From the NCBI RefSeq assembly GCF_000010625.1, contig NC_010296.1, positions 4,320,001 to 4,352,000 on the forward strand: a stretch of DNA of 32,000 nucleotides. The letters run 5' to 3'. A program made the position numbers and the translations under genes. This document shows positions 2,891 through 19,678 of this stretch, piece after piece. This stretch comes from Microcystis aeruginosa NIES-843. GTDB taxonomy: Bacteria > Cyanobacteriota > Cyanobacteriia > Cyanobacteriales > Microcystaceae. The notes under the pieces were generated by a model. The model did no database searches. It saw nothing but the letters and a program-made list of their open reading frames with translations, and was not told the origin of the DNA. Position 1 is the first letter of the stretch, and each line of letters opens with the position of its first letter.

Positions 2891-2922
2891 GGTTTGCGGC
2901 AAAAAGTTTGTTGGTGGGGTTA

Positions 2923-3051
2923 GTTATCAGTTATCAGTTATCAGTTATCAGTTATCAGATGTGAGTTTTCAGTTCACTGATTACTGTTTACTGTTTACTG
3001 ATCACTGAAAAAAGCTTCTCCCTACACCCCACACCCCACACCCCACACCCC
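2923..3051. repeat. Cluster of STRR-like heptamer tandem repeats
   Basis: (GTTATCA)x5 lies at 2923-2957 and (TTTACTG)x~2.5 around 2983-2999. (ACACCCC)x4 at 3024-3051 ends 5 nt before the nanE-like ATG. Confidence 0.9.
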
Positions 3052-3056
3052 AATTT

Positions 3057-3740
3057 ATGCGAATAGAAACCTTAAAATCGGGTTTAATCGTCTCCTGTCA
3101 AGCGCCAGTGGAGTCATCTCTGCACGATCCTGTAATTATTGCCGCCATGGCTCATGCTTGCGTGGATAGGGGTGCTTGTGGGGTAAGAATTGATAGTCCC
3201 GCTCATCTGAAAGCCACCCGTCAACAATTGCCGGATATACCGATAATTGGACTCTGGAAACGCAATTATCCCGATTGTTCGGTATATATTACTCCCAAAT
3301 ATCAAGATGCTCTCGCCATTGCCGATGCGGGTGCCGATATAATTGCCTTGGATGCTACCCCCAGAAAGCGTCCTAATGATGAAAATTTAGCCACAATTAT
3401 CGATCGTATTCATCAGGAAACTGGTAAATTAGTCATGGCAGATATAGACTCGATCGAAAGTGCTATTTATGCCGTGGCAGCTGGTGCTGATATTGTCGGT
3501 ACAACTCTTTACGGTTACACAGAAGCAACTAAAAATCTGCCACCGCCGAGTTTTTCTTTCCTAGAAGAATTAGTTAATAAGTTGTCAGTTCCTGTTATCT
3601 GTGAAGGAGGAATATCGACTCCAACAGAAGCAAAAAAAGCCCTAGAAGTTGGTGCATATTCGGTAGTTGTTGGCACGGCAATTACAGGGATTGATTTAAA
3701 AACTACCGCTTTTTTACAAGGAATTTTATCAAAAGATTAA
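3057..3740 (+). CDS. nanE: Putative N-acetylmannosamine-6-phosphate 2-epimerase
   Basis: 227 aa. The opening GLIVSCQA, then ...GVRIDSP...IIGLWKRNYPDCSVYITP...ADIIALDAT...LVMADI...ADIVGTTLYGYT...PVICEGGISTP...AYSVVVGTAIT, matches the NanE TIM-barrel family pattern. Confidence 0.75.
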   Translation: MRIETLKSGLIVSCQAPVESSLHDPVIIAAMAHACVDRGACGVRIDSPAHLKATRQQLPDIPIIGLWKRNYPDCSVYITPKYQDALAIADAGADIIALDATPRKRPNDENLATIIDRIHQETGKLVMADIDSIESAIYAVAAGADIVGTTLYGYTEATKNLPPPSFSFLEELVNKLSVPVICEGGISTPTEAKKALEVGAYSVVVGTAITGIDLKTTAFLQGILSKD

Positions 3741-3919
3741 TGGGAGGGAAAAAACCAAAAAGTTTCGCCGCACCTCCTAAAATAGCGACAACCAAAGCGA
3801 TTAAAATCCGCCGGTTTGTGAATTGCTGATAGGCAATCCCTGCGGTCAATCCGTTAACTTTTTCGTCACTACAATGGATAAACCCGTTAACTTTTCTTAA
3901 CGTAACCATGTTTATTGTA

Positions 3920-4027
3920 ATACTAAATCCGTTGAGTATAGGTAACATATGAGGAGAGGCAAAAGACAATAGGCACTCATGCAAAACGGAGAGTAAATAA
4001 TCAGTTTTTAATAACCAGACTTAGTAT
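3920..4027. repeat. Small MITE-like element (108 bp)
   Basis: Its termini are ATACTAAATCC / (A)GACTTAGTAT. The internal sequence is shared with the copies at 15620-15724 and 17187-17295. Confidence 0.6.
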
Positions 4028-4057
4028 AATATGTCTTAGTAATAAAATCATCAAATT

Positions 4058-5107
4058 CTAACTGCGCCACCGTAAAATTTGTGCTTTAATGGGGTTGACA
4101 AAATCCCGTTTTTCTGCTTGAGATTTTTCGTATTCCTGCTTGAGGCGATAATACCATTTGGCCTGGGTATCGGCATCATCAATTAACATCAAAGCTGGAT
4201 GATAACTAAGTCCTTCCTGTTGTTTAATCACCACATCGCGATCCTGTTTGAGGAATTGTAGAGTTAAATAACGCAAAAGAGGGGTTAAAAATGCCAACCA
4301 AGGAATCGTATAGTATAAACTTTGATGGACTTCGCAGTGATTTTCATCGATGGGAGTAATTGCTGTAAAAGCACAGGCCAAATAGCGATCACCTCGTAGT
4401 ATTTCTGTACGCACCGAGGGCAATTCAAAAACAATTTCAATCGATACTTTACTACCCAAAATTTTATAAGGTTTCGCACTTACTGGCATATCATAGGGGG
4501 CAAGACGAAAACCGAGGGGAACAGGTTCGTATTGTTTTTCTTTGACCCGAAATTGGCGCGGACCGCTGCGCCACCACCAAGAAGTATGAACGTAGGGACC
4601 GTGGGCCGGATCCATCAATCCCACCACTGCATGGTCAATATTGCAGTCAAAAGTGATAGTTTCGGCTACTTTGGGGGTAAGTTTGCCAAAATCGGCAATA
4701 GTCGGCACAGGGGGCAGATTTTCTCGATTAATTTCTCTTTTTGAGTCTGCCGGAATAAACACCCAGATATGACCTTGTATTTCACGACAGGGATAACTGG
4801 TGACACAAATTCTGCTAATATCAAGGCGATCGTGTTCAGTTAATGAGGGGATTTCAGAACAAACGCCATCGCTAGTATTAAATTTCCAGCCATGATAGCA
4901 ACAGTATACCCCATCCCCTTCAATCCAGCCATGGTGCAGCGGAATGCCACGATGGGGGCAAATATCCCGCAATGCGAACACTTCTCCATCCTCTCTCCTG
5001 CCAACAACAATCGGTTCACCTAGCATTTTTTTGGCCATTAGCTGACCGGGTTTAAGTTTATTTGCCGGTGTGGCCACATACCAAAAGTCGCGCAGTAAGC
5101 TAGTCAT
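4058..5107 (-). CDS. Rieske [2Fe-2S] oxygenase, PaO/LLS1-like
   Basis: 349 aa. The Rieske motif CPHRGIPLHHG-x16-CCYHGWKF is present, followed by a C-terminal region typical of the pheophorbide a oxygenase (PaO)-like family in cyanobacteria. Confidence 0.85.
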   Translation of the reverse strand: MTSLLRDFWYVATPANKLKPGQLMAKKMLGEPIVVGRREDGEVFALRDICPHRGIPLHHGWIEGDGVYCCYHGWKFNTSDGVCSEIPSLTEHDRLDISRICVTSYPCREIQGHIWVFIPADSKREINRENLPPVPTIADFGKLTPKVAETITFDCNIDHAVVGLMDPAHGPYVHTSWWWRSGPRQFRVKEKQYEPVPLGFRLAPYDMPVSAKPYKILGSKVSIEIVFELPSVRTEILRGDRYLACAFTAITPIDENHCEVHQSLYYTIPWLAFLTPLLRYLTLQFLKQDRDVVIKQQEGLSYHPALMLIDDADTQAKWYYRLKQEYEKSQAEKRDFVNPIKAQILRWRS

Positions 5108-5298
5108 AGGATTTGTCTGGAGAGCTTCGATCGTTCATCCTATCATCAGAAATGAAGATTATGAGACTGGAAGCATAACTTTGCAGTAATTAGGAGGATG
5201 AGATTGCAGTAGGCAAGGCTGAAACCCCTATTCTCTCGTTGACGAAACTCTACTCCTCATCAATGGAAACATAACGCTTCAGTGAGTCCAGAAAATTT

Positions 5299-6720
5299 GG
5301 CTCTTCGTTACCCTTTATGCTAAATCAACATACAAGATGCCAAGATAACATACTTCTAACCCAAAAATTCCGAAAGTTTCTAAAGCCATAGCCTCTCCGT
5401 TTTATTAGTTTAAGTTTATTGTTGATTCCCTCGACCACCCCATTCGTTGTCCTTCGCTCGAAATAACTAATGATTTCTCCAAACCAGTTTCGGATTGTTT
5501 GACAACTCTTGGTAAAAACACTGGAGGATTTTGCCAACCATTCCGAGATGGATAGCAGTCCCTCTGTCGGATTCTTTGAGGTTTCATAAATCTTTCTGAA
5601 TTCTTCCTTTAATTTCTGCATCTTTTTCAAATTTGGGAATTTTTCTTTGATAGCTTCTAGTTTAATTTTTTGGGGTTCCGTTAAATCTTCTTCATTTTTT
5701 AACAGGCTATATTTACTTCGCTTTAAAACTTCTAGCTTCGCTTCTTTTTCCGCTTTCTGTTTTTTATTTTTCTGCGCTTCTACGGCTCTTTTTTCCGCTC
5801 TTCTCTGTTCGTCTAACTCTTGATTAATTTGTTTCATTACATGGAATCTATCGGCGACTACCTCGGCCGATGGCATCAATTCTTTCACCAAATTTTTATA
5901 GGGCAACCAAAGGTCTATGCTCACTTCTTCAATTTGCTCTAACACCTCTTTTCCCCACCCAGTAAGCGTTTCCCTCAACTCTTCTTGTGTTCGCTTCTCT
6001 AGAATAGCTATTAGTTTTCCCGTATCTAAATTTACTAAAACCGCACAGTAATTTTTTTGTCCTTTGACTAGAGCGATTTCATCAATTCCTAGCCTTTTTA
6101 ATTTCGATAAATCTGGCTCTGTAATTTCTTCGGCGATGTCCTCTACCATTCTTTGAATCTCTTCTTCCGTTACGTTATTTCTTCGGCTAACATTTAAAAT
6201 ATCTCCTTCTTTTAATTGTTCGAGTATATTCTCGGCTAGTCTTTTCGTATAGGTTCGTTTCTTGGCGACAAAATCTAACTCTTCGCTAAAGGGTCTCTGA
6301 CAATTACCGCACTTAAATTGACGACGATTAACCTGTAGGTACACTGGTTGTCCTGAGATTGGTAAATCTTTGACTAAATGTCGATGATTTTGGTGGAGTT
6401 TATCGCTCTCTAACCCACAACGAGGACAGGTTGCTTTTTTATTTTTCGATTCGACTGGTCAAACTATACCGATATTTTCTAGGTGTCGATAGCCTTGAAT
6501 ACAGGTTCCTTCTAGGTTCAAAAATTTGTCAAGTATCATAAGTAAAATAATCTCGTTTTTGGCTATTATATCAAATCTTAACTCGATTGTCTATCTTTTG
6601 GTATTAACCTGTTTGTGCCTTAAGTCCTTCCCTGTATGGATTTCAGCTACTTTTGAGCGTAGGCGCTCTCATCGAATTTTATTTTAAGTTAATTATTTGC
6701 ATAACAATTCCCGAAGAGCC
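5299..6720 (-). mobile_element. ISL3-family insertion sequence (1422 bp) with 8-bp target-site duplication
   Basis: The terminal inverted repeats are GGCTCTTCG... at 5299 and ...CGAAGAGCC ending at 6720. They are flanked by a perfect direct repeat GAAAATTT (5291-5298 and 6721-6728). The element carries an ISL3-type transposase frame. Confidence 0.9.
5325..6539 (-). pseudogene. ISL3 transposase interrupted by an in-frame TGA at codon 27
   Basis: Reading from the ATG at 6539 gives MILDKFLNLEGTCIQGYRHLENIGIV*PVESKNKKATCPRCG...QPVYLQVNRRQFKCGNCQRPF. This continues in the same frame into the 339-aa ORF 5325-6344. The stop is the TGA at 6459-6461 (minus strand). The zinc-finger N-terminus and the DRFHVMK region are typical of ISL3 transposases. 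Confidence 0.8.
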
Positions 6721-6897
6721 GAAAATTTGATGACCTTTCCTGCTGGAATTTTACAAAAGTTTACTTAAAATGATTCAGTTCTGTCTAATTATAGCGTTTC
6801 CTGTTCGCAAGAGGTACATTATCGATATTGAAAAGCTTAATCAGCAAAGGTTTAACTGTGCCACACAGGTATGAGAAACGCTATATAATCTGTTTGA

Positions 6898-7968
6898 TTA
6901 ATCTAAACTTTTCGTTTTCCTTAGATTTTCCTCTAATTTATCTAAACGTGGGATAATCCATTGATTTTTCCAGTATTTAATCAGTTGATTACGATCTAAA
7001 ATCTTCCATTGTAGTTGATTGGATTCTCCTAATAAATACTCTTGCCAATTCTCAGCTAGTGGACAACTATAATATCCTCTTTGCCAACCAATACTTAGCA
7101 TATCTTCTGAAAATCCTAGTTCTCTTAGTCCTTTTTTTAAAACTCTTAGTTTCCAATTTGGACCTTGACCAAATTTATAAGTATCAAAAATGGTTTCTGG
7201 AACGACTTGTTTAATTAATTCCCAACTTCCGTTAGCCGTTATATGTAAATGGCTTTGACCTTTTGTATAACCTATAAATTTCCAGTTCATTAAACGGTTA
7301 TATATTGCTGATTTTCCAAATGCTCCTAAAGTATCTATATAAACTAAATCAGCTTGTTTATTTTGTCCAGAAATAATGGATACTCTATTGTTATACTTTT
7401 CATAGAAGTGCTTTCTAACTTCAGGGAACATCAAACATAAAGCAATTAATTTACTGCTGAGAACTAGATTATAAGGAGGTACAGCACCTAAAATATAAGC
7501 AGTCATACAATTATATAATCTCTCTAGCTTTTGATCTTTTGTCCAAGTGATATACTGATCTCTAACTCCTAAACCAATAATTGGATCACTGAGTCCAAAA
7601 ATACCAATTAATTTATTATTTTGTTCATCAAAAACTAAAAAACGTATTCTTCTACCATAACCAGTTGTAACAGGGATTGACCAAAAAGAAGTAGCATAAG
7701 TCCAAAGTTCTCTTTGTTTCTGGGTGTTCACAACTTCTAAGTAAGGATTGATTTTAAGAATATTTATTTCTTCAGGTTTAGCTAAACAATTTTTAAATTC
7801 CTCCTCATATTTTAAACCTTTTGAGTTCGTATGTTGAGCTAATCGATTTTGCATAAATCGTAAATCATCAACTATTAACTTTTGAGAGTCAAAATCCCAT
7901 TCAACTCCATATTCAGATAACTTTGATAACAATTGATCTCGAACGTGATCTTTTTGGTGTTTTTTCAT
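6898..7968 (-). CDS. DUF4338-like protein (Druantia DruA-like domain)
   Basis: 356 aa. The core GRRIRFLVFDEQNNKLIGIFGLSDPIIGLGVRDQYITWTKDQKLERLYNCMTAYILGAVPPYNLVLSSKLIAL...VYIDTLGAFGKSAIYNRLMNWKFIGYTKG matches the DUF4338 pattern as I recall it (GRRLRYLV...G.LGFS..AW.L..RD.WIGW...NLAS..LAL...ETFVD...YRAANW..VG.T.G). Its ATG lies 2 nt after the HerA stop. The assignment is from memory and needs an HMM check. Confidence 0.55.
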   Translation of the reverse strand: MKKHQKDHVRDQLLSKLSEYGVEWDFDSQKLIVDDLRFMQNRLAQHTNSKGLKYEEEFKNCLAKPEEINILKINPYLEVVNTQKQRELWTYATSFWSIPVTTGYGRRIRFLVFDEQNNKLIGIFGLSDPIIGLGVRDQYITWTKDQKLERLYNCMTAYILGAVPPYNLVLSSKLIALCLMFPEVRKHFYEKYNNRVSIISGQNKQADLVYIDTLGAFGKSAIYNRLMNWKFIGYTKGQSHLHITANGSWELIKQVVPETIFDTYKFGQGPNWKLRVLKKGLRELGFSEDMLSIGWQRGYYSCPLAENWQEYLLGESNQLQWKILDRNQLIKYWKNQWIIPRLDKLEENLRKTKSLD

Positions 7969-7970
7969 GT

Positions 7971-9749
7971 TTAAAAATGGAACTCATCCGAGGATTGAAG
8001 ATTATTAGCATTTTGAAATTGACTGAATTCTGTAAACATCTGAACAAATAAAGGAGAACCCGTAAAAGACAAAGGGGAAACCGGACCGAGAAACATAAAC
8101 GGATATTGTTTATTACTTTGAGGGTCAACAAATGATTTGTATAAGCTTAAAGCCTGTTTATCACTTACTAATTCTTCAATTTGTCTGTATTCACTACCAG
8201 AAGTTAAACCATATCCAAAAGCGTAAAGTCTTAATTGACCGACAATTTCTTTATGTAAAGATGCAATTGTTTGAGTAATAAACATATAACCCAAGCCGTA
8301 TTTTCTTGTGGTTCTTACACCATCTACAAATGTTCTTGTTAGGTTGGACATTTCACTATTATCATCATTACCAAAAGAGGATTTAACAAAGCGATGAGCT
8401 TCATCAAGACAAATTAAACAGTTTAATTTTTTATCCTCTTTAAAGGCATTTTCTCCCGCTACTTTTAAAATTGTGCTAATCTCTTTAAGAATCAGTGCTT
8501 TGATTTCCTCATTATCTGCGAAAGTTGTACCCTCACCCTTAATATCTAAAAATACAATAGGCTTTTGCTCATCACTAGCAGATTTTTGAACAATATGCCA
8601 CAATGAGCTTCTATGATTACCTTGACTATCATTTTCAAGAAATAAATCTAATACAGGTTGCCAAATTTCTTGTTGAACTCTTTTAAATTCCCTTTCATTA
8701 TCTATAAGCTCTTTAAGAGTATCTTGTAAACGCTGTCTTGGCTGAGAACTAGCATAGATCCTTTGTAGAGCATTATTATCTTGTATTAATGACTGTAAGA
8801 CATTTAATAATAAGTCATCACCACCATTTTTTAGCTCTACTTTTTGATGGGATAAAATATCTCTAATAATTCGAGATACTTCATCAGAAGCATAGTCTTG
8901 ATTTTCTTTACCTCTAACTCCAATATTTCTATAAAACTCTGTTTTTAGTAAAAGAGAGCAAAATAAATTTACAGCATTATTTTTAGTTCCTAATCTAATT
9001 TGATTAGTTAAACGATAAACTTCAACTTTTCTACCTAACTTTCGGAGCGAGTCATGCAGTTTAAAGGGCAAATCTGTCTCACTTGCAAATTGATTTTGAG
9101 GATCTATGAAAATGATGCCCATATTTTTGTGTCTAGCATAACCCAGAAGCATATAAGCGGCTAAACCAGACTTACCAGAGCCACTTTTTCCAAAAACTCC
9201 GATATGATAAGCTTCTCCTGCTCCTCCTTCTCCTCTATCAAAATGTTTTAACCAAAGAGGCATTTTAACATCAGTAGCATAAGCATTACCTAAGTAAATA
9301 ATTTGATTTTTGTATTGCTCTAAAAGCTTATCTAAAATTTCATCTCGAACTGAAATAATAGGCGTACCCGTTGCCGGGGAAGTTCCTAACGTTCCTGCGG
9401 TGATTTTTCCATCTGGCGCAATACTAAAACAAGCCTGAACGTTTAATTTAGCTGTTCTCACATCTGCTTTTTCACTAAGATGAGGAAGTGAACCTCTACG
9501 CTTAATAATACCTCTAAAGGTTAAATCTTCATGCCAGCGATTTTGAGTTTCTATCTCACTAATTTGTCCGATAACCACTAAATTTTCTTGATCTTGCGGT
9601 TGAACCAGACAGACTAACTGCCCTAAATTTCTCTTTTTCTCACTTTTTTGATTAATATCTATAATAATTTCTGTCGTGTTACTCGGTGAACCAACGCTAC
9701 CGATGTTAAATTGATCTGAGTGATTGTTGAGTTTGTCAAGTAAATCCAT
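7971..9749 (-). CDS. HerA/FtsK-superfamily ATPase (DUF87-type, HerA-like)
   Basis: 592 aa. It has an N-terminal barrel-like region, Walker A GVFGKSGSGKSG and Walker B LICLDEAHRF, followed by YMFITQT...LRLYAFG. This is the HerA architecture. Confidence 0.8.
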   Translation of the reverse strand: MDLLDKLNNHSDQFNIGSVGSPSNTTEIIIDINQKSEKKRNLGQLVCLVQPQDQENLVVIGQISEIETQNRWHEDLTFRGIIKRRGSLPHLSEKADVRTAKLNVQACFSIAPDGKITAGTLGTSPATGTPIISVRDEILDKLLEQYKNQIIYLGNAYATDVKMPLWLKHFDRGEGGAGEAYHIGVFGKSGSGKSGLAAYMLLGYARHKNMGIIFIDPQNQFASETDLPFKLHDSLRKLGRKVEVYRLTNQIRLGTKNNAVNLFCSLLLKTEFYRNIGVRGKENQDYASDEVSRIIRDILSHQKVELKNGGDDLLLNVLQSLIQDNNALQRIYASSQPRQRLQDTLKELIDNEREFKRVQQEIWQPVLDLFLENDSQGNHRSSLWHIVQKSASDEQKPIVFLDIKGEGTTFADNEEIKALILKEISTILKVAGENAFKEDKKLNCLICLDEAHRFVKSSFGNDDNSEMSNLTRTFVDGVRTTRKYGLGYMFITQTIASLHKEIVGQLRLYAFGYGLTSGSEYRQIEELVSDKQALSLYKSFVDPQSNKQYPFMFLGPVSPLSFTGSPLFVQMFTEFSQFQNANNLQSSDEFHF

Positions 9750-9780
9750 TGTCTTTTTCCTGTAATTTGATGAAGATTGA

Positions 9781-10935
9781 TTAAGTTCTGTAAGATTGGG
9801 TCAACAATTGGAGAAAGTCAGGGTTATCACTAAATTGATATTGTACCACGGCTCTTAACGCTTCTAAACCATCACTAATACTTTTAGCCATCAGATCCGC
9901 TAAATATTGAGGATAAGGTTCTTTGATCTCTGTTGAAACAACTTGTTCTTTGATAGCTTTTAATACTTTGGCTAATTCAATTTCTGTATTAGCACAGCTT
10001 TCTTTCATTTCTATCCTATAAGCTGGCGACCATTGATAAGGTTTATAATAAGTAAAATATACTTTTCGGCTTTTAGGCAAAATAATAGCTTGGTTTAAGT
10101 CCTCTTTTATCTTGTCTCGCTTACCTTGAAAATCAAATTTACCTGAAACTGAAATATATAAATCGTTCCAAACTCGCTCTGTTTTTGTGGTTTGACCCAC
10201 AGGTAACGGTTTAGTAAATTCACCGGCATTTAAAATTAATGTCATGCTGGTTTTATCGTCAAGCTTGAGGTCAAAGTTTTTTAAAACACTTAAGCCAATT
10301 TCTTGAGAAGAATCATATTTAACCATATATACTATATTGGGATTGGTCATCGCTTTTTTAAGAGAATCTATCAAGCTAAACCTATTAATGATATCCCATG
10401 TAGCTTGTTGAAAATGCGGTTCATCCAACGTTGACATACTGGTTAAGCTGTTAATTCCGATAACTGGTGTTTGATGAGAACCATCGGCAATAATCACATC
10501 ATGTGGTGTTTGACTAATAACTAATAATTCTAAAGCTGTCATCGCTCCTCTAGTCACTTTAGGATTACTCTCAGAACTGTGCGGGAGAACATCTTGCCAA
10601 TTTTTGTATTGAACTGAACCCCATTTTCGCTGATCTTCTCTAACTAATCCTTCAACACCAACACCAACTGCAATTAAAGTATCAGCACCAATAGATTTTT
10701 CAATAGCTTGTCCACCGTCAACCGCTGCAACAGAAGGAATAGGTGGGTTTTCTAAATCGTCAACTCTACAAATTAAATCATTATCATCTAAGATTTGATG
10801 CAGGGTTTTTCTTTGTTGTTGTAATTCATTGAAAAGTGGCTTGATTTTTTCTGCTATTTTAGGAGCATCTTCCAGAATGTCTTCTAGTAATTCATCTGGC
10901 AAGTTAGCATAGTTATCATTTTTATTGTTAGTCAT
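9781..10935 (-). CDS. NurA-like nuclease
   Basis: 384 aa. It carries VAAVDGG (D73) and VIIADGSH (D151), about 78 aa apart, which resembles the two catalytic Asp motifs (xDGS ... LDGS) of NurA. It sits directly upstream of the HerA gene with a 31-nt gap, the canonical NurA-HerA arrangement. Confidence 0.6.
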   Translation of the reverse strand: MTNNKNDNYANLPDELLEDILEDAPKIAEKIKPLFNELQQQRKTLHQILDDNDLICRVDDLENPPIPSVAAVDGGQAIEKSIGADTLIAVGVGVEGLVREDQRKWGSVQYKNWQDVLPHSSESNPKVTRGAMTALELLVISQTPHDVIIADGSHQTPVIGINSLTSMSTLDEPHFQQATWDIINRFSLIDSLKKAMTNPNIVYMVKYDSSQEIGLSVLKNFDLKLDDKTSMTLILNAGEFTKPLPVGQTTKTERVWNDLYISVSGKFDFQGKRDKIKEDLNQAIILPKSRKVYFTYYKPYQWSPAYRIEMKESCANTEIELAKVLKAIKEQVVSTEIKEPYPQYLADLMAKSISDGLEALRAVVQYQFSDNPDFLQLLTQSYRT

Positions 10936-11101
10936 GTTTAGAAAATCATAAAAAAATAATCTAAAGGCCAGAAAATCACGGGCTTGATATTTTTAGCTCA
11001 CGACAGAGCGTTTTGTCTGACATACCGTAAATTTACCGAACATCAAGCCAGCTTGTCAGGTTTAGCTTTTGCCCGTTGCTGAAAGCTATCAAAATTAACT
11101 A

Positions 11102-11175
11102 TGGACGTAACTGGATTCGAACCAGTGACCCCATCGATGTCAACGATGTACTCTAACCAACTGAGCTATACGTCC
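11102..11175 (-). tRNA. tRNA-Val (anticodon GAC)
   Basis: The reverse complement GGACGTATAGCTCAGTTGGTTAGAGTACATCGTTGACATCGATGGGGTCACTGGTTCGAATCCAGTTACGTCCA folds as a cloverleaf. The acceptor stem is GGACGTA/TACGTCC, the D-loop AGTTGGTTA, the anticodon stem CATCG/CGATG with loop TTGACAT, and the T-arm ACTGG-TTCGAAT-CCAGT. CCA is not encoded. Confidence 0.9.
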
Positions 11176-11221
11176 GCACGGATCGCTATTATAACACGAT
11201 TGCTCCTAATTAGGCAAGCCC

Positions 11222-12157
11222 CTAGGCAGTAAATTGATAGCCAATTAACTTATAAATTAACTTGGCAGTGGTAAATTCCGAGACCACCGAATCACTAATC
11301 GGGGCCAATTCCATCACATCGCAGCCAATCACCTGATGAGTTTGGAAAAGACGACGGAGAAAGCCTAGGGTTTGATGCCAACTTAACCCCCCCGGTTCAG
11401 GTGTTCCCACCCCCGGAATTAAAGCCGGATCTATGCCATCCACGTCTATGGTTAAAAATACCTTCTCGGTGCTAATTTTGGCGATCGCTTTTTCGATCCA
11501 ATTCGGATCACCGGCGATATCTCGATCCCAAACCACGGGAATCTGTTGTTTAGCAATTAATTCGGCTTCTTCCCGACAAATAGCCCGAATTCCCACGGGT
11601 AAGGTCGGTAAACCCATTTCTAACACCCGACGCATCACACAGGCGTGGTTATGGTGCGATCCTTCGTACTCAAAACGCATATCGCCATGGGCATCAATTT
11701 GAACCACCGTAAAAGGTTCCGATAAAGCCTGTCGGTAAGCTTGTACTACTCCCGTAGTGATAGCGTGTTCACCCCCGACGGCGACGACAAATTTATCATC
11801 GGCAATTAAACGAGAAACTGTAGCTGTGGTGACGGCTAACATCTCCTCGGCGGACAATTGCGGTTGTTGACGGGTATCGGCGATCGCATCATGGGTATAG
11901 ATGCCCACTTCTAAACAGGTTTCCCTCTTAAGTTCCTCATCATAGGCTTCCAATTGTTGGGAAGCGGTAATCACCGCCGCCGGTCCAGTTTCACAACCCT
12001 TGCGATAGGTGGTGGTGGCCTCGTAGGGAATCGGCAGGATCACGGCCTTAGCTGTGGCGTAAGTGGCGATCGCTTCACTCCCTAAAAATTGTTCGCTACC
12101 GGTGGCGCAAGACAATAACATGGGCAAGTCACAGAAAATTTTAGTCCAACTTTCCAT
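11222..12157 (-). CDS. speB: Arginase-family ureohydrolase (agmatinase/guanidine hydrolase-like)
   Basis: 311 aa with the ureohydrolase metal-binding motifs GGEHAIT, QIDAHGD, SHHNH and TIDVDGIDP. The true start may be the internal MLLSCATG Met. The symbol reflects family-level assignment only. Confidence 0.85.
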   Translation of the reverse strand: MESWTKIFCDLPMLLSCATGSEQFLGSEAIATYATAKAVILPIPYEATTTYRKGCETGPAAVITASQQLEAYDEELKRETCLEVGIYTHDAIADTRQQPQLSAEEMLAVTTATVSRLIADDKFVVAVGGEHAITTGVVQAYRQALSEPFTVVQIDAHGDMRFEYEGSHHNHACVMRRVLEMGLPTLPVGIRAICREEAELIAKQQIPVVWDRDIAGDPNWIEKAIAKISTEKVFLTIDVDGIDPALIPGVGTPEPGGLSWHQTLGFLRRLFQTHQVIGCDVMELAPISDSVVSEFTTAKLIYKLIGYQFTA

Positions 12158-12611
12158 TATAAATATTTTGACTATTTTTGTCTATCTCAACTGACCCCAA
12201 ACATATCTACTGTAATAGCAAAAAACCCTGATCCATCAATGGATACATCCCTTAACTTTTCTTGGTGTACCCGTGTTTATGGTAATATTTATCAATCGAC
12301 AGGGAGGGAGCATATTTGCTGAAACCGAGTTAGATTTATGGGGAGTTTCCTTGATTTCTACCAGGTAAGAGGGCATCAGAAATTCTCTTAATCCCTCCCA
12401 AAGCACAGGTTATGGCCTTTTGTCAAGGGGGAAGTTCAGATCTTAATTGAAAATATAAGTAGAGATTAGCGATCGCTAAATTGGAAGCCATGAGTAAATT
12501 TACTTTATATTATGACTGCGATGGTAGTTTAAAAACTCTTGAACTGCCTTTAATCCTTGTCAATTCTCTCTGCATAGCTTCAAATACTTGACATTTTTAG
12601 TATATTTGAAT

Positions 12612-12799
12612 GGTTCTTCGTTACTTGGTATGGTTCGATCAGGGGGCAGAAATCGGCTAAATCCTTATCTGGCAAGGGACTTAATTGATTAGCTCGTTCT
12701 AGATTGAAAACAATTGGCAAAAATCGCAGCCATGTCTTTCTATATAAGGGTTTCACCCCTTATAACTCCCGTCCATTGCATAACACAAACCGAAGAACC
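12612..12799. mobile_element. MITE (188 bp) derived from the ISL3 element, with 8-bp TSD
   Basis: Its termini are GGTTCTTCGTTAC... and ...CCGAAGAACC. It is flanked by the direct repeat ATTTGAAT (12604-12611 and 12800-12807). Its end, tgcataaca...ccgaagaacc, matches the IS end at 6699-6720. Confidence 0.85.
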
Positions 12800-12912
12800 A
12801 TTTGAATTACTCATTAGGGATAACTATCTGACATTAAACAGGAATCTTGACTCTTCTGGTTTCTGTGTGGAAACGAGGTCTATACTGATAGTCTATGCCG
12901 CAAAATAGTCCT

Positions 12913-13099
12913 GGCTCTTCGTTACTTGGTATGGTTCGATAGGGGGGCATAAATTGACTAAATCCTTATCTGGCAAAAGACTTAATTGATGAGTTCGCTT
13001 TAGATCAAAAACAATTGACAAAAATCGCTAAACGCCTTTCTATATAAGGGTTCCATCCCTTATAACCCCCGTCCATTGCATAACAATTACCGAAGAGCC
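12913..13099. mobile_element. MITE (187 bp), second copy of the same family, with 8-bp TSD
   Basis: Its termini are GGCTCTTCGTTAC... and ...CCGAAGAGCC. It is flanked by the direct repeat ATAGTCCT (12905-12912 and 13100-13107). It is collinear with the copy at 12612-12799 and has no coding capacity. Confidence 0.85.
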
Positions 13100-13198
13100 A
13101 TAGTCCTAAAAGTCTTGCCTGATAAGTATTTCACGATTTCATAAGCAAAAATTATCACACAAAGTCGAGAAGATCCGAATCTTCTTTACATTATGTTA

Positions 13199-13228
13199 TT
13201 GAAGGGTTTCATTTGGGAATGATATAAT
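13199..13228 (+). promoter_or_regulatory. Candidate sigma70-type promoter for the GIY-YIG/DGQHR operon
   Basis: TTGAAG (13199-13204), an 18-nt spacer, then an extended -10 TGaTATAAT ending at 13228. This lies ~64 nt upstream of the ATG at 13292. The call rests on sequence pattern only. Confidence 0.35.
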
Positions 13229-13291: not shown

Positions 13292-13846
13292 ATGGAAGAA
13301 ACAGTTCACGACAATTTTTTCAAAAAATTTACTGTGGTAACAGCTACTAGATCTGCTGCAGATTATCTCCCGGAGTCATCGGGTGTTTACGCTTTCTATC
13401 ATGCGTTTGATTTTTCTGAGCATGATTTGTGTGGTAATATCAAGACTCGCTTGCAAAATACAGTGTTTAAAACAAAATTTTCTGAGAATAATGATAGAAG
13501 CAAATTTACCATAGATATCTGTGGAGAGCCAGTTAGTTTATCTCAGAATATGGAATATTTTCTTCAAGAAATTTCTCAACCAAAGGAGCGAAGAATTCTG
13601 AAAGAGTTTCTAATTTCATGTAGCATTTTACAGCATCCAGAATATATTGGCACGGCAAACAATTTAAGAATGAGATTTCTTCAACACTTGGAAAGAGAGG
13701 ATGGTTTTTTATCAAAACATGGAAATTCAAGATCGAATAACGAATTTTTGTTTATTTCCTTTCCTTGTCCGAAAAATATTTCTAGACAATTGGAAAGCTT
13801 ATTAATTCAATTATGTCAACCCAAATTCAATACTCAAAGGAGTTAA
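13292..13846 (+). CDS. GIY-YIG-superfamily nuclease-like protein with atypical insertion
   Basis: 184 aa. It shows SGVYAFY (GIY-like), then EYIGTANNLRMRFLQH (YIG, then R and H), then FLFISF...QLESLLIQLCQPKFN (catalytic Glu and terminal Asn). About 80 aa separate the GIY-like and YIG strands instead of ~10. Alternatively the true first strand is FLISCSI, just upstream of YIG. Confidence 0.55.
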   Translation: MEETVHDNFFKKFTVVTATRSAADYLPESSGVYAFYHAFDFSEHDLCGNIKTRLQNTVFKTKFSENNDRSKFTIDICGEPVSLSQNMEYFLQEISQPKERRILKEFLISCSILQHPEYIGTANNLRMRFLQHLEREDGFLSKHGNSRSNNEFLFISFPCPKNISRQLESLLIQLCQPKFNTQRS

Positions 13847-13849
13847 AAT

Positions 13850-15460
13850 ATGGAACTAGATAATCAGTCTCCAGAAACTATTGAATATAAAGCAATCACT
13901 GGTAAGTTTGGTGAAGTTAGATACTTTATAACAACCTTAGAACAAAGTGATGCAGTAGAAAACATTCGATTTGCTGACGAGATACAAGGCAGCTGGAGCT
14001 TCTCCGAAAGAGTCCAGAGAAAACTCGATGAAAAAAGAGCGGAAACAGAAATATTTTCCTACTTAGCTCAAGGGGGAATTAGGTTTTTTAATTCAATTGT
14101 AGTCGTCCTTTTGCCAAACTCAAATGAGCAACGAGAGTTCTGGGATTTTTCTACAGTTAGTAGTCAAGGTAAAACTGTAGAAAAATGGGTTAATTTAAAA
14201 CTGTACAAAAACGTTGCTAGAATTGTCATTGATGGACAACATAGATTACTTTCTCTAAAAAGATACTGGAATGCTCACACAGGCAAAGAACCATTAAATT
14301 CTCAACAGTTAAAAGATAGCTTTGATTGCTCTGAAACCTTTGATATACCAGTTGTTTACTTAGTATTTAGAGAACTTGGAAGGGTAGGCTATAGCAATGC
14401 AAGCGAAACTATTAGAGATGATATTATCAAAGCGACTCGTAATATTTTTACAGTTATAAACAAAACTGCAAAATCTATTGATAAACAAACTCAATTATTG
14501 CTAGATGACAGTAAAATATCAGCATTAATTCCCAGAAAAATTTTGGAAGAAAAAGTGCTTGAAGACAAATATGTTAAATGGTCTTCTACAAACAGTTTAA
14601 ATCAAGCAGATCCTTATCTAACTACACTAAATTTAATTAGTGAATGTACTATGGAAATTTTAAAAGACTCCCCGCAAGCTTTAAAAAAATCATTTAATTC
14701 ACCTAATGAGCGACAAATGGCTTTAAAAGATTACTATGATTCTCATCCTAATTTGTCACAAATAGGCACAAAAGCTGTACTTAATTGGTTTTTTAACGAA
14801 CTTCAACCATTTAAGGATTGGATATCACAGCTAAATTATTTAGAGGTAGATGTGCCGATTCAACCAGATCAACCGCAGCTGAAACCTAGCCAGAAAGCAG
14901 CGATAAAAAGGTTACGGCAATCCAGTATTTTATACACAGTTTTGGGACAAAAAATACTCTTTTTTGCAGTTTCGAGATATTTACTTAGAATAAGAAAAGA
15001 GTATCGGATTACCGCCACTCTTAGCGCTATCTCAGATAGTATTAAGAAAATGGATCAAGAAGGTTTTTTTCAAAGAAACCAACCACACTGGTCTAATATC
15101 ATAGTACAGCCTAATGAAAATCTGAGCATTCTTACTAAAGGTTCTGGAGCCGATAAATGTGTAGAACTTGTCAAAATAATATTATCTGATACCTCTGATG
15201 GTGTAAGAGAGCTAATAAAAAAGACCAAAGAGGAAATTAGTCCTGATGTTAACTGGAATGAACATTTAATTTCTAAATGGAAAAAAGAGTTTCATGTCAT
15301 CCTACCTAGAGTAGATTTGATTGATGAGCAACTACAAGAATCGTCTGAATCGGAGGATTTATTTTCTGAAGTTAGAGAGAAGCTAGACTCTTTTGAAGAA
15401 GAAGAAAACGAATTTGCTAAAATTGAATACGATGGGGATATTTTTCAAGAAAATGAATAA
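13850..15460 (+). CDS. DGQHR-domain protein (DndB-like, ParB/Srx fold)
   Basis: 536 aa with the exact motif VIDGQHRLLSLKRYW, followed by IFTVINKTAKSI (the F..xN..K element seen after DGQHR in DndB-type proteins). It has a strongly acidic C-terminal tail. It starts 3 nt after the upstream stop, with AGGAG inside the upstream gene's end. Confidence 0.7.
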   Translation: MELDNQSPETIEYKAITGKFGEVRYFITTLEQSDAVENIRFADEIQGSWSFSERVQRKLDEKRAETEIFSYLAQGGIRFFNSIVVVLLPNSNEQREFWDFSTVSSQGKTVEKWVNLKLYKNVARIVIDGQHRLLSLKRYWNAHTGKEPLNSQQLKDSFDCSETFDIPVVYLVFRELGRVGYSNASETIRDDIIKATRNIFTVINKTAKSIDKQTQLLLDDSKISALIPRKILEEKVLEDKYVKWSSTNSLNQADPYLTTLNLISECTMEILKDSPQALKKSFNSPNERQMALKDYYDSHPNLSQIGTKAVLNWFFNELQPFKDWISQLNYLEVDVPIQPDQPQLKPSQKAAIKRLRQSSILYTVLGQKILFFAVSRYLLRIRKEYRITATLSAISDSIKKMDQEGFFQRNQPHWSNIIVQPNENLSILTKGSGADKCVELVKIILSDTSDGVRELIKKTKEEISPDVNWNEHLISKWKKEFHVILPRVDLIDEQLQESSESEDLFSEVREKLDSFEEEENEFAKIEYDGDIFQENE

Positions 15461-15467
15461 CTGAACT

Positions 15468-15504
15468 ATTAAACGCCAAGTAATTTGAGAATAACGCAAT
15501 TGTA
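15468..15504 (-). other. 37-bp internal fragment of a HepN (DUF86) gene
   Basis: attaaacgccaagtaatttgagaataacgcaattgta matches 18344-18380 inside the HepN pseudogene with one mismatch. That region encodes QLRYSQIPWRL. The fragment starts 8 nt after the DGQHR stop codon (7-nt gap). Confidence 0.6.
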
Positions 15505-15507
15505 TCG

Positions 15508-15582
15508 GTAGGGTGCGTTCCCTAATGCAACTTCTACCGCTCCACAGATCGATTTTTGGGGAACGCACCATGCACATTGATT
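15508..15582. repeat. REP-like hairpin element (GTAGGGTGCGTTCCC...GGGGAACGCACC)
   Basis: An ~11-bp inverted repeat, GGTGCGTTCCC / GGGGAACGCACC, is separated by ~35 nt. A near-identical copy lies at 21015-21094. Confidence 0.6.
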
Positions 15583-15619
15583 GAAGTTGTAAGTCTAGGC
15601 GTTGCAGAATCAAGGTATG

Positions 15620-15724
15620 ATACTAAATCCGTTGAGTACAGGCTAGTTATGAGGAGAGGCAAAAGGCAAGAGGCAAAAGGCAAAGGGGAATAAATAATCA
15701 GTTTTTAATAACCAGATTTAGTAT
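15620..15724. repeat. Small MITE-like element (105 bp)
   Basis: Same termini and core as 3920-4027. The internal region is a heptamer run, (AGGCAAR)x4. Confidence 0.6.
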
Positions 15725-15855: not shown

Positions 15856-16119
15856 ATGACTGTAAAAGCTAGTAGCCAGTTGGATATATTTGTTATGGCA
15901 TTAATATCCGGTGTTGTTCACAGTGATCCCGACATTCTAGGGGGAACCCCTGTTTTTGTAGGAACTCGTGTGCCGATGAGAACCCTACTTGATTATCTTG
16001 AGGCTGGTGATTCATTAGAGGTATTTCTAGACCATTTTCCCAGTGTCAGTCGAGAACAGGCGATCTCAGCCCTTGAATTAGCAAAGGAAATGTTGACAGC
16101 CTATGCGAATCCTGCTTGA
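15856..16119 (+). CDS. DUF433-family antitoxin-like protein
   Basis: DPDILGGTPVFVGTRVPMRTLLDYLEAGDSLEVFLDHFPSVSREQAISALE is the typical DUF433 core. The start may be the ATG at 15895. It overlaps the next gene by 17 nt. Confidence 0.8.
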   Translation: MTVKASSQLDIFVMALISGVVHSDPDILGGTPVFVGTRVPMRTLLDYLEAGDSLEVFLDHFPSVSREQAISALELAKEMLTAYANPA

Positions 16120-16429
16120 TGAATGCGCCCCACGCCCGTTAAAGCGTGAGCTTGCCGATTACGAGGTATGCACAGTTGTTGAGATGGGATGGTCAGGGAA
16201 AAAGAACGGTGAGTTGCTGAGGCTGATGAGTCAGGAGGGTTTCACGATTCTCCTCACTACAGATCAAAATTTGCGTTATCAGCAAAATTTACAGCAAGCT
16301 GGAGTGGCAGTTATTGTTCTTGTAGCAACCAGCAACAAACTTTCTGACTTACTTCCCCTAATGCCAGATGCCTGTAGCGTATTAGATAAAGTCTCTCCAG
16401 GAGAAGTGATTGAAGTTGGAGGCTCCTGA
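16103..16429 (+). CDS. DUF5615 (PIN-like/Mut7-C-like) toxin-like protein
   Basis: 108 aa opening with MRILLDECAPRPL, then ILLTTDQNLRYQQNL. This is the usual partner of DUF433 genes. Confidence 0.75.
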   Translation: MRILLDECAPRPLKRELADYEVCTVVEMGWSGKKNGELLRLMSQEGFTILLTTDQNLRYQQNLQQAGVAVIVLVATSNKLSDLLPLMPDACSVLDKVSPGEVIEVGGS

Positions 16430-16467
16430 AAGTTGTGTTGGCGAAAGCAGCATAACTCCGCATCCCT

Positions 16468-17082
16468 GGCGATATCTCGATCCCAAATCACGGGAATCTG
16501 CTGTTTAGCGATTAATTCGGCTTCTTCTCGACAAATAGCCCGAATTCCCACGGGTAAGGTCGGTAAACCCATTTCTAACACCCGACGCATCACACAGGCG
16601 TGGTTATGGTGGGAGCCTTCGTACTCAAAACGCATATCGCCATGGGCATCAATTTGAACCACCGTAAAAGGTTCCGATCAAGCCCGTTGGTAAGCTTATA
16701 CTACTCCCGTGGTGATAGCCTGTTCACCCCCGACGGCGACGACAAATTTATCATCGGCAATTAAACGCGAAACTGTAGCTGTGGTGACGGCTAACATCTC
16801 CTCGGCGGACAATTGCGGTTGCTGACGGGTATCGGCGATCGCATCATGGGTATAGATGCCCACTTCTAAACAGGTTTCCCTCTTAAGTTCCTCGTCATAG
16901 GCTTCCAATTGTTGGGAAGCGGTAATCACCGCCGCCGGTCCAGTTTCACAACCCTTGCGATAGGTGGTGGTGGCCTCGTAGGGAATCGGCAGGATCACGG
17001 CCTTAGCTGTGGCGTAAGTGGCGATCGCTTCACTCCCTAAAAATTGTTCGCTACCGGTGGCGCCAGACAATAACATGGGCAA
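16468..17082 (-). pseudogene. Truncated, decayed duplicate of the ureohydrolase gene (5' two-thirds only)
   Basis: The region is collinear with 11513-12157 with only a few percent divergence. It has a premature TAA (Q->stop after ...ITTGVV), GGEH->GGEQ, loss of the MESW ATG, and abrupt loss of homology at 16468. The two ORF-track pieces 16696-17082 and 16279-16662 are its fragments. Confidence 0.85.
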
Positions 17083-17186
17083 GTCACAGAAAATTTTAGT
17101 CCAACCTTCTATTATAAATATTTTGACTATTTTTGTCTATTACAGCCTTTCTCATCAACCGGAACTGACCTCATACATATCTACTA

Positions 17187-17472: not shown

Positions 17473-18015
17473 CTAATTAGGTTGCTTAGGTTTTTCAAGT
17501 TGCTCTTTAACTAATTCTAAGGGAAGTTTTAACACTCTAGCAATTTGTTCGACGGTTAAGCCTTCTTTCATCAATTCTGTAGCGATTTCGAGTTTAGATT
17601 CTTCAGCAAGATTAGATTTTTGTAATTGATTTTCTGGTAGTTGATTACAGATATGACCTTTATTAATTTGTACGGGATTTATTACATTAAAGTTATGAGA
17701 GACATTATAATAATATCTTCGCAGACTAGACCTAAGATTAGCTTTATTAATTTCTTCTCCTAAAATTTCCGATAAGGTTTTCCATAGCTTACCGGCTACA
17801 TCCTTGACATATTTCTCGGAACGATGATGATTTTTAGCGATTTCTGTGTATTTTTGGTGATTAATCACCCCTTCTAAGATTTCAGACTGAACATCATCTA
17901 AATTTTCTCCTGTATAGGAGAAGATGAGATTATCAACAGTTGTAATTAAAGAGTGAATATCAAAATTGTTCATTGTTAAACACAGAATCCAGATTAATAA
18001 GCTTTTACCTGACAT
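17473..18015 (-). CDS. Hypothetical HTH-like protein, paralog A
   Basis: The N-terminal domain DNLIFSYTGENLDDVQSEILEGVINHQKYTEIAKNHHRSEKYVKDVAGKLWKTLSEILGE resembles the N-terminal module of many cyanobacterial STAND/vWA-MoxR-associated proteins. The C-terminus LTVEQIARVLKLPLELV is HTH-like. The likely real start is MNNFDIHS at 17973. It is ~95% identical to 18974-19513. Confidence 0.6.
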   Translation of the reverse strand: MSGKSLLIWILCLTMNNFDIHSLITTVDNLIFSYTGENLDDVQSEILEGVINHQKYTEIAKNHHRSEKYVKDVAGKLWKTLSEILGEEINKANLRSSLRRYYYNVSHNFNVINPVQINKGHICNQLPENQLQKSNLAEESKLEIATELMKEGLTVEQIARVLKLPLELVKEQLEKPKQPN

Positions 18016-18169
18016 TATATGACATTATCAGTTGTACGGTCAATTTAATATTATTTTTAGATTTAAGTTATTTTTCTTAATACTGCTTTATATAGCTTTA
18101 AAACGCTCTCATTCCCTCGAAAAAGAACCCAGTAACGTCGGTTAAATTGCCTTTTTTATATAACTCATT

Positions 18170-18973: not shown

Positions 18974-19513
18974 TTAATTAGGTTGCTTAGGTTTTTCAAG
19001 TTGCTCTTTAACTAATTCTAAGGGAAGTTTTAACACTCTAGCAATTTGTTCGACGGTTAAGCCTTCTTTCCTCAATTCTGTGGCGATTTCGAGTTTATAT
19101 TCTTCAGCAAGATTAGATTTTTGTAACTGATTTTCTGGTAGTTGATTACAGATATGACCTTTATTAATTTGGACACCGTTAACGACATTATTGTTAGCGA
19201 CATTATAATAATATCTTCGCAGACTAGACCTAAGATTAGCTTTATTAACTTCTTCTCCTAGAATTTCCGATAAGGTTTTCCATAGCTTACCGGCTACATC
19301 CTTGACATATTTCTCGGAACGATGATGACTTTTAGCGATTTCTGTGTATTTTTGGTGATTAATCACCCCTTCTACGATTTCAGACTGAACATCATCTAAA
19401 TTCTCTCCTGTATAGGAGAAGATGAGATTATCAACAGTTGTAATTAAAGAGTGAATATCAAAATTGTTCATTGTTAAACACAGAATCAAGATTAATAAGC
19501 TTTTACCTGACAT
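18974..19513 (-). CDS. Hypothetical HTH-like protein, paralog B
   Basis: 179 aa, near-identical to 17473-18015 apart from a short central indel and substitution patch (ANNNVVNGV versus SHNFNVINPV). Confidence 0.6.
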   Translation of the reverse strand: MSGKSLLILILCLTMNNFDIHSLITTVDNLIFSYTGENLDDVQSEIVEGVINHQKYTEIAKSHHRSEKYVKDVAGKLWKTLSEILGEEVNKANLRSSLRRYYYNVANNNVVNGVQINKGHICNQLPENQLQKSNLAEEYKLEIATELRKEGLTVEQIARVLKLPLELVKEQLEKPKQPN

Positions 19514-19678
19514 TATATGACATTATCAGGTGTACGGTCAATTTAATATTATTTTTAGATTTAAGTTATTTGTCTTAATACTGCTTTATATAGCTTTATA
19601 TAACTTTAAAAGCCTTGACAGAAAAGTTTTGGATGTTTATTTTATGAGTAAAGTTTATCTCGGTTTAATTTGTTTAAC

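Follow-up and report, generated by a model that had tools for sequence, protein, structure and literature searches.

SspE and DndI, the closest described systems to the gene pair reported here, are phosphorothioate (PT)-sensing ParB-like NTPases of the DUF262 type fused to a DUF1524 HNH nickase (PMC11662687, PMC9646914); DndI, a DUF262 and HNH fusion encoded next to dndFGH, combines a PT-sensing ATPase with a nickase (PMC11662687). A ParB domain joined to a ParBDB domain has been described as the sensor architecture of DndB, SspE, GmrSD and NsnA (PMC12065111), and ParB-like sensors also drive the PT-independent systems GmrSD and Menshen (PMC4619093, PMC12065111). Dnd modification genes abound in cyanobacteria, which lack DndFGH, and this lack prompted the proposal that PT serves an antioxidant or epigenetic rather than a defensive function there (PMC8569181); elsewhere, most sspBCD and dnd modules occur without a known restriction partner (PMC8092258, PMC10853773). 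Nucleases of the URI/GIY-YIG type were seen bordering Dnd neighbourhoods by Krishnan et al. (2024), who proposed unrecognised nucleases as the real restriction components. The subject of this analysis is a pair of adjacent genes, encoding a GIY-YIG nuclease and a DGQHR protein of the DndB family (together, the dyad), in a 32,000-nucleotide (nt) stretch of the Microcystis aeruginosa NIES-843 genome (contig NC_010296.1, positions 4,320,001 to 4,352,000; the window).

Proteins with a 'DGQHR motif' were reported by Frangeul et al. (2008) next to DndC in Microcystis PCC 7806, Nostoc punctiforme, Anabaena 7120 and 29413, Trichodesmium and others, and these authors were unsure whether the protein was DndB (PMC2442094). 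The dnd genes of Microcystis are scattered over several contigs (PMC2442094, supplementary file 9), and Microcoleus carries dndBCDE (PMC8546630). No description of a GIY-YIG and DGQHR/DndB pair was found in the literature searched, and PADLOC-DB v2.0.0 contained no family matching either protein at E<=1 and no model for the pair, in agreement with an earlier note on this DNA, made from its letters alone, that did not recognise a described system. The pair is best filed as an uncharacterised module, absent from PADLOC-DB v2.0.0, of a putative ParB-like NTPase and a nuclease associated with PT systems. To the fuller reading we give about even credence: the dyad would form a two-subunit nuclease in which the DGQHR protein reads the PT state of DNA and gates a GIY-YIG nickase, a split analogue of SspE/DndI, with the window copy detached from its modification genes and possibly acting in trans.

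The two genes are separated by 3 nt, and the Shine-Dalgarno sequence of the second lies within the first (Table 1), as had been described from the letters. The junction, AGGAG or AGAAG followed by TAA or TAG, 2-3 nt and ATG, was kept in 14 of 14 intact loci, and on this arrangement the nuclease and DGQHR genes are translationally coupled. The near-consensus extended -10 promoter pointed out earlier was recovered by a consensus scan 63 nt before the first start codon; the site is a consensus match, and its function as a promoter is inferred only, because the DNA before the operon shows no conservation from one genus to another. A shared operator 5′ of the operon was also sought, and the upstream DNA could not be aligned between genera. 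The AT-richness of the region was confirmed (33% GC in the pair versus 38–48% in the window flanks). Freedom from HIP1 sites (GCGATCGC) held as an observation, none occurring between 12477 and 16834 of the window; it is weak evidence regarding the pair, because positions 1-11480 are HIP1-free too. That left part includes housekeeping genes (pyrophosphatase, NanE-like, Rieske), and the other 20.5 kb contain 13 sites.

The 184-residue product of the upstream gene matched the Pfam GIY-YIG family (PF01541) at E=3.6e-4 (21.2 bits, below the 22.6 cut-off) over residues 117-179 only, and its best NCBIfam match was 'group I intron endonuclease' (E=5.7e-4). A precomputed PF01541 match was present in 18 of 62 homologues, among the matches listed. 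In a profile search of the Protein Data Bank (PDB), residues 26-35 and 116-181 each aligned to one half of the UvrC GIY-YIG domain, with Y33, Y118, R128, H132, E168 and N180 equivalent to Y19, Y29, R39, Y43, E76 and N88 of UvrC. The GIY, YIG, R, H, E and N elements read from the letters, and the insertion of about 80 amino acids (aa) between the first two strands, were both upheld. Indeed, G31, Y33, Y118, I119, G120, R128, H132, E168 and N180 were invariant across 38 homologues, and the insertion (residues 38-115) falls between β1 (GVYAFYH) and β2 (YIGTA). An AlphaFold2 model (mean confidence, pLDDT, 68) placed β1 at 31-37 and β2 at 118-122 and gave the order β1, insert, β2, α, β3, α, the insert being modelled as a helix, a hairpin and two helices. 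The top Foldseek matches of the model were R.Eco29kI and UvrC (target template-modelling score, TM, 0.68; probability 0.92), with E-values of 0.1-0.4 that are not significant. Its motifs assign the small protein to the GIY-YIG (URI) nucleases, and the catalytic set is intact. Its best structural matches, the UvrC N-terminal domain and R.Eco29kI, share these catalytic residues and, as predicted by the model, the core fold; they differ from the window protein, which has the β1-β2 insertion and an obligate DGQHR partner. The PADLOC models of the single-gene GIY-YIG defence systems Uzume, PD-T4-3 and PD-Lambda-1 did not match it.

The 536-residue product of the downstream gene matched Pfam DndB (PF14072) at E=1.3e-11 (44.6 bits, over the 29.1 cut-off) and was borderline for TIGR03187 DGQHR, falling 0.05 bit short of the cut-off (58.8 versus 58.85 bits). 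Its predicted N-terminal ParB-like domain carries the QR, DGQHR and FxxxN motifs, and D128GQHR132, Q56-R57 and F200xxxN204 were invariant across clades A and B and the outgroups described below, so that the DGQHR motif and downstream F/N element picked out in the window copy extend to its relatives. The long helical C-terminal half and acidic tail reported earlier were reproduced in an AlphaFold2 model (pLDDT 79), in which residues ~260-481 are helical and residues 492-536 acidic and disordered; the tail is conserved. Residues ~260-481 are predicted to form a ParBDB-like helical domain, which fits the ParB and ParBDB architecture of the described sensors. Against TIGR03233, the DndB equivalog model with a cut-off of 328 bits, the window protein gave no match at E<=1 and relatives scored only 15-65 bits; against TIGR04172 (DNA phosphorothioation-associated DGQHR protein 1), the window protein scored 20.6 bits where 450 are required. 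Because its score lies far under the equivalog cut-off, the large protein, judged by family models, belongs to the DGQHR/DndB family and is no ordinary DndB. Neither protein of the pair had a Pfam match to DUF262 or DUF1524. A search of PDB sequences with the DGQHR profile returned spurious IL-33 matches only. Against viral models, Foldseek paired the DGQHR model with two unnamed proteins (E=1.4e-5 and 2.9e-5) and, more weakly, with an HNHc-domain protein and two cyanophage proteins (E~1e-3, TM only 0.2-0.3).

An exhaustive HMMER scan for DGQHR relatives returned 1451 representatives at E<=1e-3. Because just 32 of these reached E<=1e-30, the DGQHR proteins of the dyad appear to form a distinct clade, well apart from the generic DndB-like proteins that begin at about 1e-29; a third protein search with a broadened profile yielded no further relatives. 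In a neighbour-joining tree two groups were sisters. Clade A comprises the window copy and about 26 loci with at least 72% identity. Clade B comprises DGQHR proteins 60-65% identical to that of the window, paired with GIY-YIG proteins of 184-186 aa.

Clade B placed the dyad within PT modification operons. In Synechocystis PCC 7509 (L056) one co-directional operon encodes, in order, PF27807 dnd_assoc_4 (153 aa), the GIY-YIG protein (184 aa), the DGQHR protein (538 aa), DndC, DndD and DndE, and in L043 DndC begins ~60-130 nt past the DGQHR stop codon. In Brasilonema (L041) and Nostoc (L057) the dyad is followed by a second, divergent DGQHR gene and then by DndC, DndD and DndE, so that these operons are predicted to encode two different ParB-like proteins. 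A uniform tblastn table recorded dnd_assoc_4 in 5 of 5 clade B loci and DndC in all 4 with enough downstream sequence. The earlier note had taken the pair as standing alone, unrelated to DNA-modification systems, and this view did not survive the comparison with clade B and deeper relatives; as judged from the loci compared, the dyad is independent of modification systems in clade A alone, and there only in cis. The same note had considered that the large protein might prove to be an ordinary DndB beside dndCDE in relatives. The location was largely found in clade B (L056, L043, L041, L057); the identity was not, the protein being no ordinary DndB.

The next branch of the tree, L035, has the order SspC, SspD, GIY-YIG (196 aa, E=1e-41 to the GIY hidden Markov model), DGQHR, and among the deeper outgroups, whose DGQHR proteins are 465-488 aa long, links to Dnd genes recurred. 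L030 encodes the C-terminus of DndH (PADLOC 2.9e-189), GIY-YIG, DGQHR and a convergent DndA, followed by canonical DndB, DndC and DndD. L031 and L032 have GIY, DGQHR, a 245-aa gene and convergent DndE and DndD; L047 and L049 have GIY, DGQHR, a ParB-like gene (364 or 348 aa), a gene of no named family, DndC, DndD and DndE. DGQHR genes on plasmids (26-28% identity) lie after SspB, SspC, SspD or before SspFGH-like genes and are preceded by a small gene with GIY, YIG, R and E-like motifs that is weakly detectable. Since loci of clade B and of deeper relatives carry Dnd/Ssp genes, the dyad would be old, widespread and typically located inside or beside PT modification loci. By the same comparison, with sister clade B heading dnd operons and deeper relatives flanking Dnd/Ssp genes, the window pair is probably a detached, horizontally spreading offshoot of a PT-linked module, a copy of the first genes of cyanobacterial dnd operons.

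Other outgroups joined the same sensor to other partners. In the nearest ones (L022, L028, L034) DGQHR is followed by NsnB (PADLOC 3e-75) and a 252-294-aa gene, a Menshen-like triad that adjoins DndA, DndE or DndD in L028 and L034 and may be a PT-linked Menshen variant. This pairing with NsnB supports a modular role of the DGQHR protein as a sensor. A defence-island context is supported by an RdrA-like gene following a C-terminal GIY fragment and DGQHR in L024, and by a PDC-M38/PD-Lambda-5-like gene following GIY (E=1.4e-9, insert included) and DGQHR in L029. A 181-aa GIY-YIG-like gene was also seen 5′ of the triad in L034. A 167-aa ORF 5′ of DGQHR in L022 was rejected as a counterpart; it is no homologue of the GIY-YIG protein and looks non-coding.

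The position of clade B bears on a second explanation, in which the DGQHR protein is the cyanobacterial DndB, a negative regulator or limiter of PT modification, and the GIY-YIG protein is an accessory of modification that might, for example, nick DNA for DndCDE access; the window copy would then be a rearranged piece of a dnd operon with no restriction role. The clade B protein does sit exactly in the DndB position 5′ of DndC (L056, L043), the DGQHR-motif protein beside DndC was listed in 2008 as a possible DndB of Microcystis, Nostoc, Anabaena and Trichodesmium, with dnd genes scattered in Microcystis (PMC2442094), and many members are named 'DndB' by NCBI. In Salmonella, DndB is an ATP-modulated regulator according to PMC4507180, as cited in PMC10853773. 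Opposed to this explanation are the scores of 20-38 bits, far under the 328-bit equivalog cut-off, and the co-occurrence of the dyad with a separate DndB-like or ParB-like gene, namely canonical DndB in L030, the DndB-like gene of L046, the ParB-like gene of L047 and L049 and the second DGQHR gene of L057 and L041. Moreover, a repressor would not require an obligate partner whose nuclease active site is intact, and clade A, a compact two-gene unit found over many genera with unsaturated synonymous divergence (dS), is unlike a random operon fragment. We consider the regulator explanation unlikely. With DndB (TIGR03233, regulator of dndBCDE) the window protein shares PF14072, the DGQHR, QR and FxxxN motifs and, through clade B, the position 5′ of DndC; it differs in length (536 aa with an acidic tail versus ~360 aa), in its obligate GIY-YIG partner and in the absence of a dnd operon.

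A gated two-subunit nuclease was favoured, and its proposed mechanism is as follows. The two gene products would assemble into one enzyme. The DGQHR protein would be its sensor and switch, the ParB-like domain binding NTP and the helical domain DNA, so that the state of the DNA is read, and the co-translated GIY-YIG protein would be the nicking or cutting effector that it gates. Clade B dyads would serve their own dnd operons, and the window copy, like others of clade A, would most likely read PT marks written by dnd genes elsewhere in the genome. Marked self DNA would be spared and unmarked invading DNA nicked; alternatively, clade A may have become autonomous. Because the dnd genes of Microcystis are already scattered, action in trans is plausible there. 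The sensor-plus-nuclease logic proposed in the earlier note by analogy with GmrSD, here a split GmrSD- or SspE-like design, remains the best functional analogy.

The nearest parallels are SspE and DndI. Each joins a nuclease and a helical DNA-binding domain to a ParB-superfamily NTPase bearing a D-G-Q-x-R motif, a combination also predicted for the dyad, and each is, like the dyad, linked genomically to Dnd or Ssp modification genes. Indeed, the dyad of L030 occupies the slot by dndH and dndA that DndI fills in Salmonella (PMC11662687). The differences are that the predicted nuclease of the dyad is a GIY-YIG protein made as a separate, upstream polypeptide, whereas theirs is an HNH domain fused at the C-terminus; that the dyad motif is DGQHR (DndB family) and theirs DGQQR (DUF262); and that no modification genes accompany the window copy in cis. 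GmrSD/BrxU (type IV) also places a nuclease under the control of a ParB-like NTPase sensor, and a split form with separate GmrS and GmrD is known (PMC4619093); its ParB subfamily and nuclease fold differ, and GmrSD targets modified phage DNA, a specificity not evidenced for the dyad. The sensor of Menshen (NsnABC; PMC12065111) is built of ParB and ParBDB domains, and the nearest DGQHR outgroups precede an NsnB-type ATPase. NsnA, however, is of the DUF262 type, and the dyad has a GIY-YIG DNase as its predicted effector and lacks NsnB and NsnC; tblastn queries for NsnB and NsnC-like proteins matched neither the window nor the clade A loci, such genes being present only in L022, L028 and L034. 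Membership in SspFGH or PbeABCD was rejected, there being no PADLOC match and the published features of SspF/G/H (a Walker A ATPase, an FtsK-like protein) being different.

If true, the proposal would indicate that a GIY-YIG protein can act as the effector of the ParB-sensor design. Because it stands at the head of dnd operons, beside Dnd/Ssp genes in other phyla and also free-standing, the dyad is a concrete, testable candidate restriction partner for cyanobacterial and other 'solitary' PT systems, with relevance to phage resistance and genetic tractability in bloom-forming Microcystis and in Nostoc. The strongest form of the claim, that the dyad supplies the restriction arm long missing from cyanobacterial PT systems, currently said to have none, and that clade A is now an autonomous, horizontally mobile, PT-independent two-gene nuclease defence, would make the dyad a new split, GIY-YIG-armed counterpart of GmrSD/SspE; it appears unlikely.

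Pairing of the two genes, predicted from a single genome, proved to be general. By tblastn, the GIY gene lay 2-6 nt 5′ of the DGQHR gene in all 20 species-representative genome loci with upstream DNA (from Microcystis, Nostoc, Calothrix, Microcoleus, Chroococcus, Pelatocladus, Mojavia and Dendronalium) and in 11 of 11 cyanobacterial metagenome loci. All-against-all clustering of ORFs identified the dyad as the only genes common to all loci; its neighbours were varied and mostly housekeeping genes (APRT, major facilitator superfamily transporter, RtcA, topoisomerase IA). Pairwise identities of the GIY and DGQHR proteins were correlated (r=0.91), and both genes were under purifying selection (dN/dS, Table 1). 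The proportion of synonymous differences was low (pS ~0.35), far from saturation even between Microcystis, Nostoc, Microcoleus and Chroococcus, GC remained at 32-35% irrespective of the host flanks, and conservation began roughly <=25 nt before the first ATG. The conserved pairing, unsaturated dS, constant low GC and sharp conservation boundary together indicate a compact 2.2-kb cassette that appears to have spread horizontally among cyanobacteria in recent times. Decay was evident in about 5 of 21 genome loci, by a frameshift (L006), a split gene (L012), internal deletions (L016 and L020) or reduction to a relic (L021). A housekeeping role in repair was rejected, since the pair is patchily distributed, has foreign GC and unsaturated dS, and includes pseudogenes among its copies. 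In M. aeruginosa LEGE 91341 (L015, L019) the DGQHR gene is split over two contig ends at about residues 187-198, which suggests either insertion of a repeat or insertion sequence (IS) in the gene or a break in the assembly.

A topoisomerase IA gene (722-745 aa; Toprim, Topoisom_bac and zinc ribbons) adjoins the dyad in 6 loci in two arrangements, at 2303-4510 of L002 and just 3′ of the pair in L006, L010, L016, L018 and L020. It also matched the PADLOC DpdF model (E=1e-24). Whether it reflects a functional link, a marker of an integrative element or plain synteny, it is a lead only.

Mobility and decay of this kind raise the possibility of a selfish or addiction cassette, in which a GIY-YIG toxin or homing-type endonuclease is restrained by the DGQHR protein, with the acidic tail as a possible DNA mimic. 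GIY-YIG domains are common in homing endonucleases, and the best NCBIfam match of the small protein points the same way, as do the patchy distribution, foreign GC, low dS across distant hosts, sharp boundaries, the decayed loci and the conserved tail. No target-site or intron/intein context was found, however, and no flanking repeats common to the loci. A 536-aa partner with NTP-binding motifs and a DNA-binding domain also exceeds the needs of an antitoxin, and the operon-embedded clade B argues for a role in dnd systems. We therefore regard such a cassette as very improbable.

The absence of dnd, dpd and ssp genes near the window copy, stated from the letters, was confirmed, DndC, DndD and DndE being absent from the whole window. 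It extended to clade A at large: over 8-10 kb, dnd, ssp and dpd genes were missing from the window and the ~26 loci alike. This argues for the reading of the earlier note, an autonomous, PT-independent restriction-like defence, a two-polypeptide analogue of GmrSD directed against phage DNA with some other feature such as modified bases. The compact, AT-rich, horizontally transferred and often decaying unit is typical of accessory defence genes, the window strain provides a defence-island context (DruA-like and HerA-like genes and the DUF433/PIN pair), and PT independence is known for the ParB-like sensors of GmrSD and Menshen cited above. Yet PT modification genes are physically linked to the dyad in the sister clade and in almost every deeper relative whose flanking sequence is long enough, and dnd genes are known from the host genera. 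Within clade A itself, L046 is an exception in which a canonical DndB N-terminus lies divergently 5′ of the dyad, and the relic of L021 adjoins a DndD-like ABC ATPase that also flanks the clade B dyads of L041 and L057. In addition, phage, plasmid and IMG/VR collections contained no close homologues of the pair, and so do not support a phage- or plasmid-borne origin; a PHROGs scan of both proteins likewise gave no match. Full autonomy was judged distinctly unlikely.

Several observations weigh against a PT-reading nuclease. By tblastn, dnd_assoc_4, DndC, DndD and DndE were lacking within 8-10 kb of the ~26 clade A loci, and the absence of dnd genes in cis is unusual for a modification-dependent nuclease. 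In clade B loci of the L056, L043 and L052 type the DGQHR protein takes the place of DndB and no second DndB is visible, so it could regulate modification rather than sense for restriction. The GIY-YIG assignment was sub-threshold in Pfam and its Foldseek E-values were not significant, a Foldseek search of the PDB with the full-length DGQHR model produced only noise, with no SspE, DndI or BrxU among the matches, and neither protein was matched by PADLOC models. Most Nostoc loci, finally, have housekeeping rather than defence neighbours.

Table 1. Positions of the dyad, its signals and other features, numbered in the window unless a locus is named
Feature	Position	Strand	Remarks
GIY-YIG nuclease gene	13292..13846	+	ORF, 184 aa; dN/dS 0.13
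DGQHR (DndB-family, ParB/Srx-like) gene	13850..15460	+	ORF, 536 aa; dN/dS 0.16
Shine-Dalgarno AGGAG of DGQHR gene	13838..13842	+	last codons of nuclease gene; 7 nt before ATG
Promoter-like site TTGAAG-18-TG-n-TATAAT	13199..13228	+	consensus scan, 10/12 matches plus extended -10 TG
Second DGQHR gene, 533-544 aa	L041:9751-11385; L057:11748-13349	-	between dyad and dndC
Menshen-like triad	L022:917-4755; L028:5001-8965; L034:580-5286		DGQHR sensor in place of DUF262-type NsnA
speB repeat, left copy, 682 bp	11504..12185	.	5′ two-thirds of agmatinase/speB plus 28 nt; self-BLAST 97%, repeat finder
speB repeat, right copy, 682 bp	16459..17140	.	truncated pseudogene copy; self-BLAST, repeat finder
DUF433 (87 aa) and PIN-like/DUF5615 (108 aa) overlapping genes	15856-16429		just downstream of dyad
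ISL3 transposase	5325-6344		in 5165-11099 insertion
DruA-like protein	6898-7968		PADLOC 1.8e-85
HerA/DUF87-like ATPase	7971-9749		in 5165-11099 insertion
384-aa protein	9781-10935		no family match; in 5165-11099 insertion

The surroundings of the window dyad suggested how it may have arrived. The intact speB gene (11222-12157; arginase-family Pfam match) contributes one of two direct repeats that bracket a 4.3-kb segment containing the dyad and the DUF433/PIN-like pair, and this layout looks like the footprint left when a circular molecule with a speB fragment integrates by a Campbell-type single crossover. Microcystis sp. LSC13-02 (L001) is 96-99% identical to the window over shared parts, its sequence stopping before the truncated speB copy, and LEGE 91341 (L015) matches the window from the dyad through the DUF433 gene into that copy. 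The L015 match skips 16180-16430, which is most of the PIN-like gene. The DUF433/PIN-like pair is a probable toxin-antitoxin module.

Further upstream, positions 5165-11099 are an insertion missing from L001 and L019, two Microcystis loci that are syntenic with the window in other respects. The genes for DruA and a HerA-like ATPase within it, unaccompanied by other Druantia genes, may constitute an uncatalogued defence cassette.

Two repeats of ~190 bp (12611-12801 and 12912-13101; 87-89% identical) lie 5′ of the promoter-like site and are not at that place in L001, where a resembling sequence sits elsewhere (1414-1600); they are probably Microcystis repeats resembling miniature inverted-repeat transposable elements. 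Other short repeats of the window were found at 15468-15724 and at 17187-17295/18344-18380. A 96%-identical duplication (17474-18100 and 18975-19598) comprises two minus-strand genes of ~180 aa. That at 18974-19513 had no family match, and that at 17473-18015 has a C-terminal helix-turn-helix-like region with weak matches to a phage repressor PHROG and to Csa3.

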